NCBI GenBank assembly: GCA_019745315.1
Contig: JAIETH010000002.1
Span: 32,654 to 96,653 of the forward strand
From: Patescibacteria group bacterium
Lineage (GTDB): Bacteria > Patescibacteriota > Minisyncoccia > Phycocordibacterales > UBA918
Length of the DNA: 64,000 bases
Reading direction: 5' to 3'
A model generated the notes under the pieces. It had not been told where the DNA came from and did not search any database. It saw only the letters and a program-made list of their open reading frames with translations. Of this stretch, positions 41,198 to 51,558 are shown in pieces. The position numbers were made by a program, and so were the translations under genes. Each line of letters opens with the position of its first letter. The stretch's first letter is position 1.

Positions 41198-42571
41198 TTA
41201 TTTTAAGGCTGCCATCAAATCTGCTATGGCAACACGCTTCTGCTCCCCTGTATCGCGATCACGTACGGTCACTGTATTATCTTCGAGCGTTTCAAAATCA
41301 ATAGTCACACACGCTGGAGTTCCAATCTCATCTTGTCTTCGGTATCGCTTACCAATATTTCCGTTATCATCCCATTCACACATCATTTCCTCTTTGAGCA
41401 TAGAGAATACCTCGCGCGCTTTCGCAACGAGCTCTGGCTTATTTTTCAAAAGAGGAAAGACAGCCACCTTGATAGGAGCAAGTTCGCGAGAAAGCTTGAG
41501 TACGGTACGCGGCTCACCGTTAAGCTCATCTTCTGTATATGCATCAGAGATGAATGCAAGGAACATACGCCCGAGACCAACTGACGTTTCCAATATCCAT
41601 GGAATATATTTCTCTCCAGTAAAAGGATCTGTGTAATTAAGATCAGTTCCTGAATGCTTCATATGCTGAGTGAGATCGTAGTCAGTACGATCATGAATAC
41701 CTTCCAATTCATCAAAGCCATATGACGGAAAATTGTACTCAATGTCCCATGCGTCCTTTGCATAAAAGACAAGATTTTCGTGCTGCTTCCACTTGAGATT
41801 TTCTTCACGAATTCCCATTTTGAGATACCACGCCCATCGCTCTTCCTTGATGCGATCATACGCCTCTTTATTTTCATGCGGCTTCACAAAAAACTGTGTA
41901 TCTGCCTGCTCAAGCTCGCGTGTGCGAAAAAGGAAGTTGCGAGGAGATATCTCGTTACGAAATGCCTTACCAATCTGTACGATACCAAACGGTACTTTTA
42001 CACGCGTCGTATCTACAACATTTTTAAAGTTTAAATAGATACCCTGACACGCTTCTCCAGGAAGATATACAGGCTCTTCGTTAGTACCCGTGAAGTCTCC
42101 CATATTTGTTTTGACCAACAAATTGAATGCGCGCACTGGAGTAAAGTCATGTGCGCCACATTTCGGACACTTTATTTTTGCTTTATGTTCATCAAACAAT
42201 GCATTGAGATCGCTCTCAGACATCTTTTCGTCTGCAGTGACACCTATTTTCCCCAATTCTTTGTCTACACGAATACGTGTATTGCACTTTCGACATTCTG
42301 AGAGTGGATCAGAAAAACCACCAGTATGTCCGGACGCCTCCCAAACACGAGGATCTTTAAACATCGCCGAATCAAGACCTACGTAGTTGTCACGTCTTTG
42401 TACATACTCTTTCCACCACTCTTTCTTGAGATTATTCAAAAGCTCAACCCCATACGGACCGAAATCATACATCCCAGCCATGCCACCATAAATCTCAGAG
42501 CCAGGGTAAATAAAACCCTTGCGTTTAGCGAAAGAAATGATCTTCTCCATCAATGCAGCATCTTTTTCCAT
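41198..42571 (-). CDS. glyQS: Glycine--tRNA ligase (dimeric class II type).
   Basis: N-terminal GFIYPGSEIYGG...YDFGPYG and a C-terminal anticodon-binding domain. Confidence 0.85.
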   Translation of the reverse strand: MEKDAALMEKIISFAKRKGFIYPGSEIYGGMAGMYDFGPYGVELLNNLKKEWWKEYVQRRDNYVGLDSAMFKDPRVWEASGHTGGFSDPLSECRKCNTRIRVDKELGKIGVTADEKMSESDLNALFDEHKAKIKCPKCGAHDFTPVRAFNLLVKTNMGDFTGTNEEPVYLPGEACQGIYLNFKNVVDTTRVKVPFGIVQIGKAFRNEISPRNFLFRTRELEQADTQFFVKPHENKEAYDRIKEERWAWYLKMGIREENLKWKQHENLVFYAKDAWDIEYNFPSYGFDELEGIHDRTDYDLTQHMKHSGTDLNYTDPFTGEKYIPWILETSVGLGRMFLAFISDAYTEDELNGEPRTVLKLSRELAPIKVAVFPLLKNKPELVAKAREVFSMLKEEMMCEWDDNGNIGKRYRRQDEIGTPACVTIDFETLEDNTVTVRDRDTGEQKRVAIADLMAALK

Positions 42572-44587: not shown

Positions 44588-45172
44588 TTACAAGTGGCTC
44601 AACGTCAACGCATTTTCGATAGTTTTCTCGAGTACTGGTACAGAAAAATCTTCACTTTGCACACAAATACATGCTTCCTCGAATGTAGCCGCCGAAAGAA
44701 GCCGTGCGTACGAAGCGTGTGGCGATACATATCCCAAGTGACTCAAAAGTCGTAGCAAGAAAACGCGTTCACCAAGAGGATGCTCCGCCGCCCCCAATAC
44801 GTACATACCATCAACGACCTCAGTAAATAACTCAGGGTGACGACCGCCTCCCTGAACAAAGCGAGATAGTGAGCGTGTACCAGCCAGTACGGCAGCCCGA
44901 GCGGCGCGAGTACGCGCTTTATAATAAAAATTATCAAGGGCAACGGCGCCGATCACTCGCCACTCAGATCTCCCTCGAACCAATGTCACTTTGGCATATG
45001 AAAAATCCTGAAGACCATATCTCAGTTTTGAAATATGCGCTCGCGTCCCGCCTGCGCGCGCATAGAGCATTCCTCCCTCTTTTGTAAAAAGACGGAGCGT
45101 ACGATCGTGCTCTTTGTCAGAAAATGATCCGCAAACAATTGCTTCTGTGGTATATGTCTCAAAGGTGGCCAT
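44588..45172 (-). CDS. recO: DNA repair protein RecO, short form.
   Basis: An N-terminal OB-like region with the G...A.A.G.R....K.R...LQ.F pattern. Moderate similarity. Confidence 0.5.
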   Translation of the reverse strand: MATFETYTTEAIVCGSFSDKEHDRTLRLFTKEGGMLYARAGGTRAHISKLRYGLQDFSYAKVTLVRGRSEWRVIGAVALDNFYYKARTRAARAAVLAGTRSLSRFVQGGGRHPELFTEVVDGMYVLGAAEHPLGERVFLLRLLSHLGYVSPHASYARLLSAATFEEACICVQSEDFSVPVLEKTIENALTLSHL

Positions 45173-45183
45173 GACGCCCTCTA

Positions 45184-48100
45184 TTATACCAAGGTCACTC
45201 GATATGTTCGTTGATCAAGAGTGAGGGCTTCTCCGTCAGAAGAATCAAAACGAATATCTGTAGCATTCACCGTACGTGCAATCATATCTCTATACTCTGC
45301 CACTATGCTCTGACCCTCTCCATCAGTGTCTACAACAAGAACAATACCGTCTTGTGGCGCGTACCCTGACTGCTTTCGTAATTCTTGAATATGGCGCATA
45401 AGATCTCGCACCTCCCCTTCACGCGCGAGTTCTGGTGTGATCTCTGAATCAAGGGCAACCTCGCTTAATAGGGACTGGTCTTCTACGATCTGTTTTACAT
45501 TCACCTCTTCCTTGATCAATATGAGAAGATCTTCTGTATTTAAATACTCAGCACTCTTGATGCGAAGTGTTTGAAGAGGCTGACGAACTTTTACTCCCAC
45601 CTCATTACGAGCCTCAAGCGCCAAAGATACAACATCTCGTACTTTTTGCATTGCGCGCAAATCTTCTTCTTTTGGAGAAATTGAAATTGAAGGCCATGAT
45701 GCAAGGTGCACACTTATAGGATCAGCTTCTTCGCGCACAACTTGGAATAGGTGCTCAGCAAAAAACGGCATCGCCGGAGCCATCACAAGTGATAGCGTTT
45801 TAAGAATATAACGAAGCGTTGCAAGTGTTGCTCGTTGATCTTCCTCTCCCCCATACTTCAATCGCTCACGTGAGCGTCGCAAATACCACACCGAGAGATC
45901 GTCAATAAAGCCAGTAATTGGTCGCGTTGCTCGATCAAGCTCATACTCTTCCATACCGAGAGTTACATCCGCGACCACCTCTGACATCCGCATCAATATC
46001 CACGTATCAAGTACATGTGTTGAACCAAGCGCTTCTCCTGCTGGCACATCAGACTCTTTATACAACTCATAGAATGAAAGCACATTAGCCAAACGACCAA
46101 TGTTTTTGCGCCCAAGCTCAGCAAGACTTTTTTCAGAAAAGTTAAGATCTTCACCTCGAATGATTGGAGACGAGAGTAGATAAAAACGAAGTGTGTCTGC
46201 GCCATAGACATCAACAACATCCATGGGATCAGGATAGTTTTTTAGCTTCTTTGACATCTTGCGCCCGTCTTCAGCTAACACCAATCCGTTCACAATAACG
46301 TTCTTATATGGCGATCTTCCAAAAAGAGCTGTTCCAAGTACGATAAGAGAATAAAACCACCCACGAGTTTGATCTACTCCTTCCGCAATAAAATCAGCAG
46401 GATACCCTATTTCTTTCTCTGGGTTAAAACGATCAGTATTTTCAAATGGATAATGCTGTTCTCCATATGGCATCGAGCCCGATTCAAACCAACAGTCAAA
46501 TACATCTGGTACGCGTACGAGTGTTTCTCCATCAGTATCTAGAAGTTTAATTTCATCAATATACGGGCGGTGATAATCAAGTTCGTAATTTCGATTATGC
46601 GGCAATGGTACAAACTGAAGCTCTCGCACCTCTGCATTTGTAAAATACTCGCCTGAGTTACGCATCAGTTCGGTCTTATCTATATCTGCACCGAGAGCCA
46701 CCGACTCAAGTCCAAAGAGAGGCCCTGCGTGACTAATGATAAGGATATTCTTGCCCTTAAACTTCGCATCAATATCATAGAGAAATTCACCCACCCTTTT
46801 CTGTACATCCCGACGATTTTCAAGATTCCCAATTTTTGTGAGATATCGTGATTTCCAATCAGGAAAAAGTGCACTGTGTTCTGCCCATGTCTTCCCTTCA
46901 AAATCAGGACCGATCTGCATTTCACCAATTCGATCGTCTTCAATCATCGCTGAATCAGGAAGGTTAAAATGTTTCTGCAAAATTTCTGCAGTTTGTTTTG
47001 TGCGCTCGTAACCAGAGTGGATGATGAGATCGATTTTTTTATCTTTGTACTCTCCCGCAACCTTCTCTACCTGCTCTATCCCTTTTTGTGTCAAAGGATT
47101 GTGAGCCTCCTTTTTGGTACTTACTACGTCAGCCGCATTGCTTTCAGCTTCGCCGTGACGCATGAGGAAATACTGATTACCAGACTTTGGCACATGTGAC
47201 GCAAGCTCCTCGAGTGAGCCAAATACTTTATAGGTATTTGCTTTTTTGTTTTTCCATACCGGAAGCGGTGCTCCCCAATACCGCTGACGAGAGACCGCCC
47301 AATCACGTGCGCCCTCAAGCCAATTTCCAAAACGAGCTGAACCAATATGTTCTGGCACCCATCCAACTTTCGAATTTTCTTCTACGAGCTTATCTTTAAA
47401 ATCGGTAACCCGCACAAACCATGAAGACGTTGCATAGTTAAGAAGTGGTGTCTCACAACGCCAACAGTGCGGATAGCTGTGCACAATGTTTTCTTTTCCA
47501 AAAAGGCGTCCGCGCTCTTTAAGCATCTTTAAGATCAAAACATCTGCATCGGTATGAAGAATGCTCTTCTCAGAATCATCTTTCGGCTTCACAGGGCGCC
47601 CAGAGAGATCAGTAATATGCGACATGAAGTTCCCTTCTGTATCTACATGATGTACTACTGGAATTTCTTCCTTTTGTGCAAGAACAAGATCTTCTTCTCC
47701 GTATGCAGGAGCCAAATGCACTGCGCCTGTTCCGCTTTCAAGTGTTACATAATCAGCATGATAAATTTTCCATGCATTTGTTTTATTCTCTATATCGCGA
47801 TCAGCATAATATTCAAATGGAGGTATGTATGATTTTCCAACTAACTCTGAACCCTTAAACTCTTCCACTATTGAATAGTCTTCAGTCCCGAGCTGAGAAA
47901 TTCGCTCTTTCGCAAGAATAACAAAATCTTTTTTCCCTTCTAGAGAAACTTCAACCTTTACATACTCGTGGTCATTATGAACGGCAGCTGCCATATTGCC
48001 TGGAAGCGTCCACGGTGTAGTTGTCCACACAAGAAGAGACGTATCAGTCACCTCGCGAGCCTCATCCAGAAGCGGAAGCTTCACAGTAACCGCAATATCT

Positions 48101-48735
48101 TTTATATCTTTATAGCCCTGGTTTACTTCAAAGTTTGAAAGTGTGGTGCCGCAACGGGGGCAGAAGTGCATGGACTTAAATCCTTCGTATACCAACCCTT
48201 TTTTATTAAGCTCAGAAAAAACCCACCACACACTTTCAGTGTATGACGCATCCATTGTCTTATAGTCATCGTCCATATCAGCCCAACGACCGAGGCGCGG
48301 AATGATACGCTTCCAATCATCCGCATACTCCATCACAGTATCAGCACATGCTTGATTGAATTTCTCTACCCCAAGCTCTTCAATATCTCTTTTAGTAGCA
48401 AGTCCGAGCTTTTTCTCGATGATGTTTTCAAGAGGGAGTCCGTGACAGTCCCATCCCCACTTACGAGTGACATGATATCCGCGCATCGTTCTATAGCGTG
48501 GAATGGTGTCCTTAATAGTTCCTGCAAGAATATGTCCGTGATGCGGAAGCCCAGTTGCAAACGGTGGCCCGTCATAAAAAACGTATTCACCAAGCGGAGA
48601 TTCTTTTTCTAATGACTTTTCAAAAATCTTTTCTGTATTCCAAAACGCAAGAACAGCTTCCTCACGCAAAGCGACATCACTCACCTTTTTTTCTGTTGTA
48701 GTATCTGGTGTTTTTTCCATAACAAATCCCCCCAC
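45184..48735 (-). CDS. ileS: Isoleucine--tRNA ligase (type 2) with an inserted histidine-phosphatase (PGAM-like) domain.
   Basis: Shows HIGH (PHHGHIL), the editing domain, WCISR-like RDWAVSRQRYWG, KMSKK and the C-terminal domains. About 195 extra residues with LMRHGEAESN and ILIISHAGPL motifs are inserted between PLPVW and YHRPYIDE. The likely true start is MEKTP at 48720. Confidence 0.85.
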   Translation of the reverse strand: MGGFVMEKTPDTTTEKKVSDVALREEAVLAFWNTEKIFEKSLEKESPLGEYVFYDGPPFATGLPHHGHILAGTIKDTIPRYRTMRGYHVTRKWGWDCHGLPLENIIEKKLGLATKRDIEELGVEKFNQACADTVMEYADDWKRIIPRLGRWADMDDDYKTMDASYTESVWWVFSELNKKGLVYEGFKSMHFCPRCGTTLSNFEVNQGYKDIKDIAVTVKLPLLDEAREVTDTSLLVWTTTPWTLPGNMAAAVHNDHEYVKVEVSLEGKKDFVILAKERISQLGTEDYSIVEEFKGSELVGKSYIPPFEYYADRDIENKTNAWKIYHADYVTLESGTGAVHLAPAYGEEDLVLAQKEEIPVVHHVDTEGNFMSHITDLSGRPVKPKDDSEKSILHTDADVLILKMLKERGRLFGKENIVHSYPHCWRCETPLLNYATSSWFVRVTDFKDKLVEENSKVGWVPEHIGSARFGNWLEGARDWAVSRQRYWGAPLPVWKNKKANTYKVFGSLEELASHVPKSGNQYFLMRHGEAESNAADVVSTKKEAHNPLTQKGIEQVEKVAGEYKDKKIDLIIHSGYERTKQTAEILQKHFNLPDSAMIEDDRIGEMQIGPDFEGKTWAEHSALFPDWKSRYLTKIGNLENRRDVQKRVGEFLYDIDAKFKGKNILIISHAGPLFGLESVALGADIDKTELMRNSGEYFTNAEVRELQFVPLPHNRNYELDYHRPYIDEIKLLDTDGETLVRVPDVFDCWFESGSMPYGEQHYPFENTDRFNPEKEIGYPADFIAEGVDQTRGWFYSLIVLGTALFGRSPYKNVIVNGLVLAEDGRKMSKKLKNYPDPMDVVDVYGADTLRFYLLSSPIIRGEDLNFSEKSLAELGRKNIGRLANVLSFYELYKESDVPAGEALGSTHVLDTWILMRMSEVVADVTLGMEEYELDRATRPITGFIDDLSVWYLRRSRERLKYGGEEDQRATLATLRYILKTLSLVMAPAMPFFAEHLFQVVREEADPISVHLASWPSISISPKEEDLRAMQKVRDVVSLALEARNEVGVKVRQPLQTLRIKSAEYLNTEDLLILIKEEVNVKQIVEDQSLLSEVALDSEITPELAREGEVRDLMRHIQELRKQSGYAPQDGIVLVVDTDGEGQSIVAEYRDMIARTVNATDIRFDSSDGEALTLDQRTYRVTLV

Positions 48736-48788: not shown

Positions 48789-49877
48789 TTATTTCACGAG
48801 GGTTATAAGCGGACGCTTTGTGGCTTCTGTCACAATGGTAAACGTCTCGCTCCCAAGTATCTGCCTCCGCTCAGTCTCTACAATACAGCGCCACAAACCA
48901 TCATGAACATTGGTTACATACGTATATCCTCTATATCCTCGCTCATTTCCTCCTGAAATAGTAAATGGGATTCTGCTTTGAGTGACCCACTCGCCACTCG
49001 TCTCATTAAAGTACTGCCAGTGATGAAATATTCTGAGTGAAAATGAGGTCGGCGCAAATACAGAGGTGAAGCAGTGAACCTCATCCCCCTTTGTGTATCG
49101 ATACGTTGTGTCAGCATCGCGCCAAAACTTATACCACGGAGCTTCCTCGTATGTAAGACGATAACTTCCGTCTTCAATTTTTTCAACCTGATGATAGATG
49201 TCTATATTTTTAAGTGAAAGCGGAATAGGCGGAATAATGTTTCCAAAATATAAAAAATTAAGAACAGCAAAAATGATGCCGAGGGAAAATATAATATTGC
49301 GGATATGAAGCTCAATAAAATTTGGGACAATAAGACGTAAGAGTCGTAGGTACAAAAATATAACAATGAGCGCCAATGTCCCGCTTCCTACAAAAACCCA
49401 TGGCCCCATTTTCTTAACAAGAACTGGTACAAACAAAATACAGTATGAAAAAATACCTAAGAAAAATATTGAAAGATTGAGGAGCAACCTCTCCGCTCGA
49501 TCACGCACCATCTCATTCCCTATCATCACACCAAGAACAAGTACGAGAAATGGCCACGAAACCGACCATGAGCCACTTTGGCTATAAAAAACAAGTGTTC
49601 CTGAAAGAAGTGAACCGAAACTAAATTGCACCAAAAGTGGCGCGTACCGCAATACAAAGGCTCGCATTTTTTCTCCTAACTTATCTGCAGTAGCGGCATA
49701 GAGAAGCGCTAAATTAGTGCCGGCATTCAATATATGCGCGAGCAAAATTCCCATTGCAAAAAACTGATCGACGCGTCCGAGCGTTAAAATATCGACAACA
49801 AAACCTCCAACAAAGGCAATGGTGAGCCACCACTGTTTTAGTTTTTGCGCTTTATCGTAATACGAACGAAATACCAT
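48789..49877 (-). CDS. Multi-pass membrane protein with a C-terminal soluble domain; function unknown.
   Basis: About 8 TM helices and a 130-aa C-terminal domain. Confidence 0.5.
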   Translation of the reverse strand: MVFRSYYDKAQKLKQWWLTIAFVGGFVVDILTLGRVDQFFAMGILLAHILNAGTNLALLYAATADKLGEKMRAFVLRYAPLLVQFSFGSLLSGTLVFYSQSGSWSVSWPFLVLVLGVMIGNEMVRDRAERLLLNLSIFFLGIFSYCILFVPVLVKKMGPWVFVGSGTLALIVIFLYLRLLRLIVPNFIELHIRNIIFSLGIIFAVLNFLYFGNIIPPIPLSLKNIDIYHQVEKIEDGSYRLTYEEAPWYKFWRDADTTYRYTKGDEVHCFTSVFAPTSFSLRIFHHWQYFNETSGEWVTQSRIPFTISGGNERGYRGYTYVTNVHDGLWRCIVETERRQILGSETFTIVTEATKRPLITLVK

Positions 49878-50259: not shown

Positions 50260-51558
50260 CTAGTTAATGAAAGAATCTGGAACTGGATGCGCAAGACAAA
50301 TTTCTTTGATCTCACTTTTTATCTCTGCTTTTTTATTCGCATCATCTTTATTTCGAAGTGTTTCTATCATCAATTCCGCAACACGTGTCGCTTCTTTTTC
50401 TTTCATATTACGCGTTGTCATCGCAGGAGTTCCAAAGCGAATTCCAGAGGGATCCATAGGACTGCGTGTATCGTCTGCTATTGAATTCATATTGAGCGAA
50501 AGCCCTACTTCGTCAAGCACTGCCTGAGACTCTTTCCCTCCTACACCAAGAGATCCATACACATCTGCAAGAATTAAATGATTTGAAGTTCCTCCACCAA
50601 TCATACGCACCCCCTCTCTGCGGAACACGTCTTCCATTGCTTTTGCGTTTTTAAGAATCTGTTGTGTGTATTTCTGGAATTGTGGGGTTGCTGCCTCCTT
50701 AAACGCAATCGCCTTACCTGCAATCAAGTGCATGTGAGGACCACCTTGGAGCCCTGGGAATACCGACTTATCAATCTTTTTGGCATACTCTTCATTTTCG
50801 CGCGTCAAAATCATACCTCCGCGTGGCCCCCGGAGCGTCTTGTGAGTGGTGGTGGTAATAACATCGAAGCCATCATCAAATGGGTTACGAGCAACCTTAC
50901 CCGCAATCAAGCCTGCAATGTGTGCCATGTCAGCCACTGTGATAGCTCCCACCTCTCGTGCAATTTCTACAAATTTTGCATACTCAAGCTCTCGACTATA
51001 GGCAGAGAAACCAACTAAAATCATTTTTGGCTTCTCACGAAGCGCTGTGGCGCGAAGCTCATCAAAATCAATCTCACCCGTTTCTATATTCTTCATCTTG
51101 TATCGCACAAAACGGAAAATTTTTGCAAGCGCTGTAACTGGATGTCCATGCGTTAAGTGTCCTCCGTGCGAAAGATCCATACCCAATATAGTGTCTCCTG
51201 GCTCAAGGAGCGCGAAGTACATAGCAACATTTGCCGGAGCCCCCGAAAGCGGCTGCACATTTGCATATTCACAATTAAAAAGAGTCTTGGCGCGCGCTAT
51301 CGCAATGCGCTCAACAGCATCGGTAAAATCCTGACCGCCATAGTAGCGCTTCCCTGGATATCCTTCTGAATACTTATTCGTGAACACCGAACCATTTGCT
51401 TCCCGCACCGCGCGAGACACATAGTTTTCACTCGGCACCAATTCAAGACCCTCCTCTTCTCGACGCTCTTCTCCAATAAGGGTATTGAAAACTTCAATAT
51501 CTTCTTTTTCTATCCACGGATAGAGCGACTCTTTTAATTCATGTTCAGACATACGCAT
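50260..51558 (-). CDS. glyA: Serine hydroxymethyltransferase.
   Basis: The PLP site TTTTHKTLRGPRGG and overall SHMT similarity. Confidence 0.9.
   Translation of the reverse strand: MRMSEHELKESLYPWIEKEDIEVFNTLIGEERREEEGLELVPSENYVSRAVREANGSVFTNKYSEGYPGKRYYGGQDFTDAVERIAIARAKTLFNCEYANVQPLSGAPANVAMYFALLEPGDTILGMDLSHGGHLTHGHPVTALAKIFRFVRYKMKNIETGEIDFDELRATALREKPKMILVGFSAYSRELEYAKFVEIAREVGAITVADMAHIAGLIAGKVARNPFDDGFDVITTTTHKTLRGPRGGMILTRENEEYAKKIDKSVFPGLQGGPHMHLIAGKAIAFKEAATPQFQKYTQQILKNAKAMEDVFRREGVRMIGGGTSNHLILADVYGSLGVGGKESQAVLDEVGLSLNMNSIADDTRSPMDPSGIRFGTPAMTTRNMKEKEATRVAELMIETLRNKDDANKKAEIKSEIKEICLAHPVPDSFIN

Follow-up and report, generated by a model that had tools for sequence, protein, structure and literature searches.

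The window analysed here, a stretch of 64,000 nucleotides (nt) from a Patescibacteria group bacterium (NCBI GenBank assembly GCA_019745315.1, contig JAIETH010000002.1, positions 32,654 to 96,653 of the forward strand), contains an ileS gene for isoleucyl-tRNA synthetase (IleRS) that carries a histidine phosphatase domain within the CP3 region of its catalytic core. IleRS with a nested phosphatase is an undescribed, conserved variant of aminoacyl-tRNA synthetase (aaRS) architecture, and in related genomes whose ileS has no such insert a free-standing gene for the phosphatase adjoins ileS. The latter arrangement is new here and is the most informative fact of the analysis. The explanation that accounts best for the observations overall, and which we favour with modest confidence, is that an intact phosphatase, nested in a housekeeping IleRS, serves as its dedicated partner and acts on a phosphomonoester ligand at the synthetase.

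A phosphatase domain nested in IleRS

The ileS open reading frame (ORF) lies on the minus strand, like all window features given below, at positions 45184–48735, and was identified by the model TIGR00392 and by its relatives in the PDB. It encodes 1183 amino acids (aa) from a GTG codon at 48735, a version that begins MGGFV; the exact window protein is recorded from three sources, and its NCBI entry, MBX9906684.1, has 1178 aa with an ATG start at 48720. TIGR00392, the ileS equivalog model, matches with 900 bits against a cut-off of 621 as two stretches around the insert, and the order of Pfam domains is tRNA-synt_1, His_Phos_1 and tRNA-synt_1, followed by Anticodon_1 and DUF5915. The closest solved structures are those of eukaryote-like (type-2) IleRS (E = 1e-219 to yeast 8wnd). 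In the alignment with the yeast enzyme, residues 24–512 and then 719–1084 of the window protein are matched, and since the query jumps from 512 to 719 while the yeast sequence advances only from 489 to 498, the extra segment comprises aa 513–718 (46582–47199), about 206 aa in all, with a short linker, the histidine phosphatase (Pfam aa 523–692) and the C-terminal linker FVPLPHNRNYE. A nested domain resembling phosphoglycerate mutase (PGAM) in a 1183-aa IleRS ORF had been proposed beforehand from the DNA letters alone, and this original prediction is borne out by the ORF, the Pfam matches and the yeast alignment. The peptides quoted in it fall at aa 477–494 (RDWAVSRQRYWGAPLPVW), 523–533 (FLMRHGEAESN), 664–676 (ILIISHAGPLFGL) and 721–754 (YHRPYIDE...WFESGS); the interval that it gave, 46560–47250 (aa 496–726), does hold the insert, its boundaries and its length of about 195 aa being superseded by those above.

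The Pfam family His_Phos_1 (PF00300) matches aa 523–692 with 103–107 bits against a gathering cut-off of 21.7 (E = 1.7e-29), and the excised segment alone with E = 8.6e-31. AlphaFold2 folds the insert with high confidence from a 16-sequence alignment (predicted local distance difference test, pLDDT, 91.8; predicted template modelling score, pTM, 0.89), and in a full-length model from 56 homologues (pLDDT 91.1, pTM 0.87) the insert is as confident as the remainder of the protein, with 10-residue pLDDT blocks of 84–97. The earlier expectation that the insert would match His_Phos_1 and fold on its own agrees with both results. Foldseek comparison of the insert with the PDB returns small branch-1 histidine phosphatases (probability 1.0, TM-score about 0.7), among them the metal-independent phosphoserine phosphatase PspA, PhoE/YhfR, mycobacterial hydrolases, glucosyl-3-phosphoglycerate phosphatase (GpgP), a riboflavin-pathway phosphatase and the alpha-ribazole phosphatase CobC. 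The Pfam score, the catalytic set and the predicted alpha/beta PGAM fold all place the insert in branch 1 of PF00300, and it is predicted to be a nested, independently folding histidine phosphatase of the small PhoE/PspA/CobC kind. The same fold is found in PhoE/YhfR (1H2E, 1EBB), PspA (4IJ5/6) and Rv2419c (4QIH), and also in CobC (6NRU, 6E4B) and the riboflavin-pathway HFP (9MMH). The small branch-1 phosphatases and the insert have the same size of about 190–200 aa and the same RHG motif, second Arg, Glu and second His, but the insert is only 20–28 % identical to the named enzymes and below all of their subfamily cut-offs, and its family is nested in or encoded beside ileS and has unusually basic free forms.

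The RHG motif (R526, H527 and G528; 47152–47160) would supply the phospho-accepting nucleophile, H527, with the second phosphate-binding arginine at R578 (47002–47004), the predicted general acid at E605 (46921–46923) and the second catalytic histidine, in the motif ISHAG, at H669 (46729–46731). Among the 163 distinct phosphatase domains compared, of which 119 are nested and 44 free-standing, R526, H527, R578 and H669 are invariant (163/163) and the Asn of the RHGxxxxN signature is largely retained; a Glu or an Asp occupies position 605 in 162 of them, the lone exception being a relocated copy of the P0025 type described below. R526 and H527 are also invariant in the alignments A1 and A2, and R526, H527, R578, E605, E639 and H669 are invariant or near-invariant among 56 aligned full-length fusion proteins, which are 36–58 % identical to the window protein. 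This pattern of conservation indicates that the phosphatase is intact and under strong selection.

The synthetase around the insert is, judged from its sequence, a housekeeping class Ia IleRS of type 2, with Ile-tRNA charging as its predicted role. Both the eukaryote-like relatives and the C-terminus, in which Anticodon_1 (aa 910–1055) is followed by the type-2 domain DUF5915 (aa 1062–1180; together 45196–46008), are those of type 2. The window protein has in common with the type-2 IleRS of Candida albicans (6LDK), yeast (8WND/7D5C) and Thermus thermophilus (1ILE) the full set of domains, namely the Rossmann fold with HIGH and KMSKS, the CP core, CP1, CP2, CP3, the anticodon-binding domain and the type-2 C-terminal domain, and it differs from these solved enzymes in its approximately 206 extra CP3 residues and in the loss of the zinc cysteines. 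The HIGH signature of the class I catalytic site reads HHGH (aa 65–68; 48532–48543), with H68 conserved in at least 90 % of the 56 full-length fusions. The CP1 editing domain, to which the editing-domain structures 1wk8 and 1wny align, spans about aa 207–423 (47467–48117), and W237, T238, T239, T240, P241 and T243 of its threonine motif WTTTPWT (aa 237–243) are invariant in the same set, in which K826, S828 and K829 of the KMSKS signature, here KMSKK (aa 826–830; 46246–46260), are invariant or near-invariant. Since the synthetase signatures and the phosphatase catalytic residues are all kept, both enzymes are expected to be active, and IleRS and phosphatase alike are expected to be functional. 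Two curated IleRS classes were considered and rejected, the GNAT-IleRS class NF040702 (336 bits against a cut-off of 1999) and the mupirocin-resistance enzymes MupA/MupB (NF000257/8; 694 and 734 bits against 1900). PGAP annotates MBX9906684.1 with no more than 'class I tRNA ligase family protein', and 'histidine phosphatase family protein, partial' is the label on fragments of relatives; evidently the usual rule for naming IleRS fails in the presence of the insert.

The fusion is clade-wide in Paceibacteria-type Patescibacteria and is not confined to the window. An exhaustive search of 1.84 billion representatives returned at least 193 fusion clusters at 50 % identity (E <= 1e-30), nearly all of which match the whole query in one stretch, many of them full-length (1110–1270 aa). 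A word-index search with aa 470–760, whose matches extend to about 510 aa at most and for which full-length homologues were taken from the representative search, yielded about 40 fragment clusters with PF00133 and PF00300, most labelled Patescibacteria/Paceibacterota. In GTDB, scanned as one genome per species with an insert-only alignment, at least 235 species genomes have a confirmed fusion locus. The best 80 of these loci were inspected; all 80 are from Patescibacteria (Paceibacterota, Kaiser-, Nomura-, Zambryski-, Vogel- and Adlerbacteria, Minisyncoccia), and in all 80 the N-terminal part of IleRS, the phosphatase and the C-terminal part share one stop-free frame. The same in-frame architecture is found in 39 nested metagenome loci from unrelated samples, and such recurrence goes well past anything that chance would give. 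The window species is not among the GTDB representatives, since the best match to the window among the matches listed is only 53–54 % identical. The original prediction had pointed to other IleRS as the place to look for the insert, and had allowed that it might prove a widespread, already annotated feature. Widespread it is, but its many copies in public databases carry automatic Pfam labels, and no curated name for them was found; no publication in the literature library that was searched describes an IleRS–histidine phosphatase fusion, and comparison with the PDB found no solved structure combining the two folds.

The insertion point lies within CP3, a subdomain that comprises residues 473–534 of Candida IleRS and binds zinc in the Thermus enzyme (PMC7191050), and window residue 512 is aligned to Candida residue 496. 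The insert had earlier been placed in a loop of about 30 aa in Thermus-type IleRS; this placement was right, the loop being the CP3 subdomain (PMC7191050). On the N-side (aa 477–512; 47200–47307) RDWAVSRQRYWGAPLPVW is followed by KNKKANTYKVFGSLEELASH, and the CxxC of relatives is lost; the C-side (aa 719–754; 46474–46581) includes the re-entry into the Rossmann fold and, in relatives, the second Cys pair. The flanks are the class Ia strand RQRYWGAPLPVW and then VFGSLEEL before the insert, and DYHRPYIDE after it. Insert-less relatives of the window protein read PIWxCxxC..V(I)GSxxEL..(5–25 aa)..DLHRPYID..CxxC, with a four-Cys zinc motif in CP3 as in Thermus IleRS (PMC7191050), and in every nested form the phosphatase lies between GSxxEL and DLHRPYID, that is, at the same insertion point. 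Both cysteine pairs of the zinc knuckle are kept in 19 of the 21 scorable insert-less IleRS. Among nested IleRS the pattern is all-or-none, both pairs being kept in 46 and both lost in 50, and the window protein and its closest relatives are among those without all four cysteines. The phosphatase domain may act as a structural substitute for the zinc site.

Other additions to IleRS were seen among the relatives. Some have tandem phosphatase domains in CP3, in two to four copies, most of which retain the catalytic motifs; relatives with multiple phosphatase copies include P0251, P0254, P0262, P0245 and P0184, and in P0184 the second phosphatase is found elsewhere, between the KMSKS region and the anticodon-binding domain. 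The loop after WFESGSMPY is a second insertion hot spot, in which P0152 has a GNAT acetyltransferase and P0171 a P-loop kinase-like domain (AAA_18/AAA_33). The latter was considered as a clue to the phosphatase substrate and set aside, its matches being to generic kinases only (E about 0.02–0.05). Within its editing region P0152 additionally carries, in frame, a Y1 transposase domain of the IS200/REP type.

Free-standing phosphatase genes beside ileS

Free-standing homologues of the insert, about 189–190 aa long and about 40 % identical to it, come from Staskawicz-, Nealson- and "Pacebacteria". The four that were examined all lie upstream of an insert-less type-2 ileS encoding 968–989 aa. The gene order argS–phosphatase–ileS–recO is found at two of these loci, with 4-nt spacers in P0055 and overlapping genes in P0061, while P0089 has two tandem phosphatase genes followed by ileS, and in P0062 ileS is located 1.6 kb downstream on the same strand. 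A metagenome scan was made with an alignment of free forms only, so that loci were chosen by phosphatase similarity alone, and its best 80 loci comprised 41 free and 39 nested copies. Of these 41, 37 had enough downstream DNA to be scored, and ileS homology begins at most 60 nt downstream in 34 of the 37 and at 751 nt in one more; upstream, argS usually abuts or overlaps the free phosphatase gene in the metagenome loci. At one locus (L082, GCA_964490095; 1935–4877) the ileS beside the phosphatase is split into ORFs of 403 and 577 aa. The ileS of L081, which has an identical phosphatase, is intact, and the split in L082 is probably a frameshift or sequencing error and not a real split gene.

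The nested and free-standing states are mutually exclusive: none of the 80 inspected GTDB loci has a separate phosphatase copy beside the fusion ileS, and the nested copy is the only such phosphatase domain in the window. The order ileS, recO, DUF11/CLIPPER protein and class II aaRS, read downstream in the window, is that of the loci with a separate phosphatase gene, and the separate and nested arrangements are therefore two states of one locus. The fusion ileS likewise occupies the argS–ileS–recO slot that is held by insert-less ileS in related loci, which lends indirect support to its predicted isoleucine-specific charging of tRNA-Ile. Most related loci have argS directly before ileS, but the window does not; among 70 fusion loci argS abuts ileS in 28 (gap of at most 66 nt), the others having gaps of 0.1–2.8 kb. 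No decayed phosphatase gene was found in 39 argS–ileS gaps searched with 163 queries, the best tblastn match (E = 0.003) not being significant.

Free forms of the phosphatase are very basic, with a median net charge of +16, an isoelectric point of 9.9 and +9 charges per 100 aa, compared with +1.5 for the neighbouring IleRS and +2.5 for ArgRS at the same loci. The basic character of the free forms hints at a partner that is acidic or polyanionic. Overall they are much more basic than the nested forms, among which the anciently nested domains have a charge close to neutral. The idea that tethering relaxes the charge was examined and not adopted, as close nested/free pairs differ little (median +3.5, 19 of 26 positive), which is a weak hint only.

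Nested and free phosphatases are phylogenetically intermixed, and some are close relatives. The nested domain of L107 is 66–67 % identical to the free forms of L118, L129 and L110, the free form of L148 is closest to the nested domains of L143, L150 and L163 (58–61 %), and a Glu605-to-Asp variant is common to particular nested and free forms. In a neighbour-joining (NJ) tree of the phosphatases 6 state changes are counted (5–11 across 100 bootstraps, with a numerical warning about saturated distances). A single origin of nesting found no support: no branch in either tree divides nested from free forms, and even the best division leaves 22 sequences out of place for the phosphatase and 15 for the IleRS body. 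All trees were made by NJ only, and the backbones are poorly resolved for the phosphatase and the IleRS body alike. The sequences nevertheless suggest that the locus has passed several times between the adjacent and the nested state, by transition or by recombination, and the nested and free forms appear to be functionally interchangeable. Two IleRS subtypes occupy the same argS–phosphatase–ileS slot, one type (L081, L088, L096, L129 and others) and a divergent "DVGNPWLDAGIVPF" type (L084, L118, L106, L122), to which the nested L155 also belongs. Phosphatases beside different IleRS subtypes can be about 70 % identical (L118 versus L129), which suggests that ileS has been replaced in place while the phosphatase gene was retained.

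A derived copy of the phosphatase, P0025 (L090, 6001–6870; also in L091), stands apart from ileS. It has 289 aa and is flanked by the CP3 zinc-knuckle remnants CAAC and CSQCGG without an IleRS body, within a NeuB/CMP-sugar transferase/UDP-GlcNAc 2-epimerase cluster. It is related most closely to nested domains, has Val in place of the catalytic Glu, and looks like a nested domain that has been excised and reused elsewhere.

Possible functions of the phosphatase

From the tight, conserved gene adjacency and the nested fusion we infer that the phosphatase is a dedicated partner of IleRS. In the proposed mechanism, the free phosphatase would work with or on IleRS, or the IleRS–tRNA complex, near CP3, and nesting would make the association permanent and 1:1. 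A ligand of nucleotide type would be presented at the synthetase, where His527 would attack its terminal phosphomonoester, and a phospho-histidine intermediate would form and then be hydrolysed with Glu605 as the general acid. As a result, a ligand that is itself unchargeable, or that is an inhibitor of charging, would be cleared. As the substrate we would, tentatively, guess first at a tRNA acceptor end with a 2'/3'-phosphate or at a nucleoside monophosphate. Enzymes of branch 1 cleave terminal phosphomonoesters rather than mixed anhydrides, which makes the aminoacyl-adenylate an unlikely substrate; hydrolysis of an adenylate, as envisaged in the original prediction, would hardly fit the general chemistry of the family. 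A bolder and more doubtful proposal is that the phosphatase is an accessory enzyme of the IleRS cycle for phosphate-directed quality control or repair, which has repeatedly switched between a docked operon partner and a CP3-nested domain. Such an enzyme might, for instance, remove 2'/3'-phosphates from the tRNA acceptor end or clear a phosphorylated nucleotide inhibitor at the synthetic site.

Partial precedents for such an arrangement are known. The CP1 editing domain is likewise hydrolytic, is inserted into the Rossmann fold of IleRS itself, and acts in cis on a product of the synthetic site. However, CP1 occurs in all IleRS, ValRS and LeuRS and cleaves aminoacyl esters, whereas the insert has a phosphomonoesterase fold, sits in CP3 and belongs to one bacterial lineage. 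NF040702 (ileS_w_GNAT) is an earlier case of IleRS with an unrelated enzyme domain that modifies small molecules, although the window protein has a histidine phosphatase and no GNAT, and the GNAT of P0152 sits in a different loop. In RNase H/acid phosphatase proteins of the Rv2228c type (PRK07238) a CobC-like phosphatase is fused to a nucleic-acid enzyme. The insert matches this model with E = 2e-17, but with 63 bits against a cut-off of 326, and the fusion there is to RNase H and end-to-end, not nested in an aaRS.

Several points weigh against a dedicated phosphatase acting at the synthetase. Conserved gene order together with fusion is strong evidence for a shared function without being conclusive, and the charge signal is entangled with lineage, since nested domains that have close free relatives are basic as well. 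The structural neighbours of the insert are small-metabolite phosphatases. Curated models all score the domain below their cut-offs, with 73.7–77.4 bits against 162.9 for CobC (TIGR03162), 69.8 against 225 for archaeal short dPGM (NF038349), 51.1 against 350 for PspA (NF045917) and 44.2 against 74.5 for SixA (TIGR00249), and the domain is therefore filed at superfamily level only. In addition, the insert has diverged somewhat more quickly than the IleRS body (mean pairwise identity 0.30 compared with 0.42), at about the pace of the C-terminal domains (0.335). The case for repeated switching draws on NJ trees with the weak backbones and the numerical warning mentioned above, and recombination could mimic multiple transitions.

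Some of these points are shared by the main alternative, which we consider unlikely but worth serious attention, namely that the phosphatase belongs to housekeeping metabolism, be it as a metal-independent phosphoserine phosphatase, as a short phosphoglycerate mutase or as a phosphatase of sugar phosphates, and that it shares an operon with ileS and became neutrally nested in CP3, a permissive surface loop, without any mechanistic link to aminoacylation. This would be in keeping with the closest structures and hidden Markov models (PspA, PhoE, GpgP, riboflavin HFP and CobC), with the other inserts that patescibacterial IleRS takes (GNAT, P-loop kinase-like and IS200-type transposase domains), with the reuse of the derived copy P0025 in a sugar-nucleotide cluster, and with the weak correlation between the identities of insert and IleRS body to the window (r = 0.11). 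However, the adjacency to ileS is near-universal (34/37) and tight, with overlapping or abutting ORFs, and persists where the ileS subtype was replaced. Nesting at one loop has apparently arisen or been exchanged several times, which is not expected under neutrality, and the strongly basic character of the free forms sets them well apart from the products of the adjoining genes, as would be unusual for a metabolite phosphatase.

It is less probable still that the phosphatase is a guard or antidote module, which would inactivate a phosphorylated IleRS inhibitor or reverse the phosphorylation of IleRS by a HipA-type toxin kinase. IleRS is a frequent target of antibiotics, and a function in immunity would have parallels in the curated IleRS-with-GNAT class NF040702 of NCBIfam and in representative P0152, which carries both a phosphatase and a GNAT. 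For GNATs a precedent in detoxification exists, as they give immunity to microcin C and tiarins by modification of the warhead (bioRxiv 10.64898/2025.12.02.691738). Against such a role, the association is ancient and apparently clade-universal, with frozen catalytic residues, as for a core function rather than an arms-race trait, and among the PADLOC defence models no family was matched by the insert or by the free homologue P0055; in the PHROGs library one family of unknown function was matched. Moreover, no IleRS inhibitor is known to us in which a phosphomonoester is essential, nor any resistance enzyme of the PGAM type.

It is very improbable that the role is structural alone, the domain being a pseudo-enzyme whose catalysis no longer matters and which stands in for the zinc knuckle by stabilizing CP3 or contacting tRNA. 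Such a scaffold would suit the loss of all four cysteines in half of the nested IleRS (50 lost, 46 kept) and their retention in 19 of 21 insert-less ones. On the other hand, the invariance of the catalytic arginines and histidines and the near-invariance of the acid residue hold for nested and free domains alike, the Asn of RHGxxxxN is largely kept, extra tandem copies retain the motifs, and a free-standing form cannot serve as a CP3 scaffold. Finally, explanations of the insert by an assembly chimera, a frameshift artefact, an intein or the recent insertion of a mobile element, for which the unusual ORF length and nothing else speaks, can be dismissed in view of the recurrence of the in-frame architecture in all 80 inspected GTDB loci and the 39 metagenome loci, the recovery of the exact protein from three sources, the absence of a discontinuity in guanine–cytosine content across the insert, and the divergence of the insert together with its host proteins, to 30–55 % identity. 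With regard to an intein, the Pfam scan found no Hint/intein family, and the junctions ...ASHVPKSGNQ... and ...PHNRNYELDYHRP... have no splice signature; PHN is conserved as a part of the linker, and the residue after it is variable. The original prediction had argued against a frameshift or an intein, and the unbroken frame, the lack of a Hint/intein domain and the recurrence in hundreds of independent assemblies uphold it in this.

Gene neighbours and wider meaning

In the window, ileS is followed downstream by recO (44588–45172; RecO_N and RecO_C), and the class II aaRS gene (41198–42571; tRNA-synt_2b and HGTP_anticodon) lies downstream of the ileS–recO–DUF11 block. A DUF2914 membrane protein (48789–49877) and serine hydroxymethyltransferase (50260–51558) are encoded on the other side of ileS, and a tRNA-Ile(GAU) gene is located at 517–590.

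For annotation, the consequence is that the fusion proteins are under-annotated, and a dedicated model would fix the IleRS calls of Patescibacteria. For protein evolution, the locus presents an operon partner that ends up inside the catalytic fold of its neighbour, at the tip of a zinc knuckle that is then often lost, and the natural separate and nested forms are a ready-made comparison for experiment. The aaRS rank among the enzymes that have been studied most thoroughly, and their accessory domains, with functions in editing, tRNA binding and signalling, have repeatedly revealed new biology. If the phosphatase is indeed an accessory enzyme of the IleRS cycle, it would open a new class, by function, of domains associated with aaRS and would illustrate from nature how a domain can become nested again and again at a single site. 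A phosphomonoesterase that is tied to one synthetase across hundreds of species would imply an unrecognised phosphate-dependent step or hazard in the formation of Ile-tRNA or in the physiology of these episymbionts with their reduced genomes.

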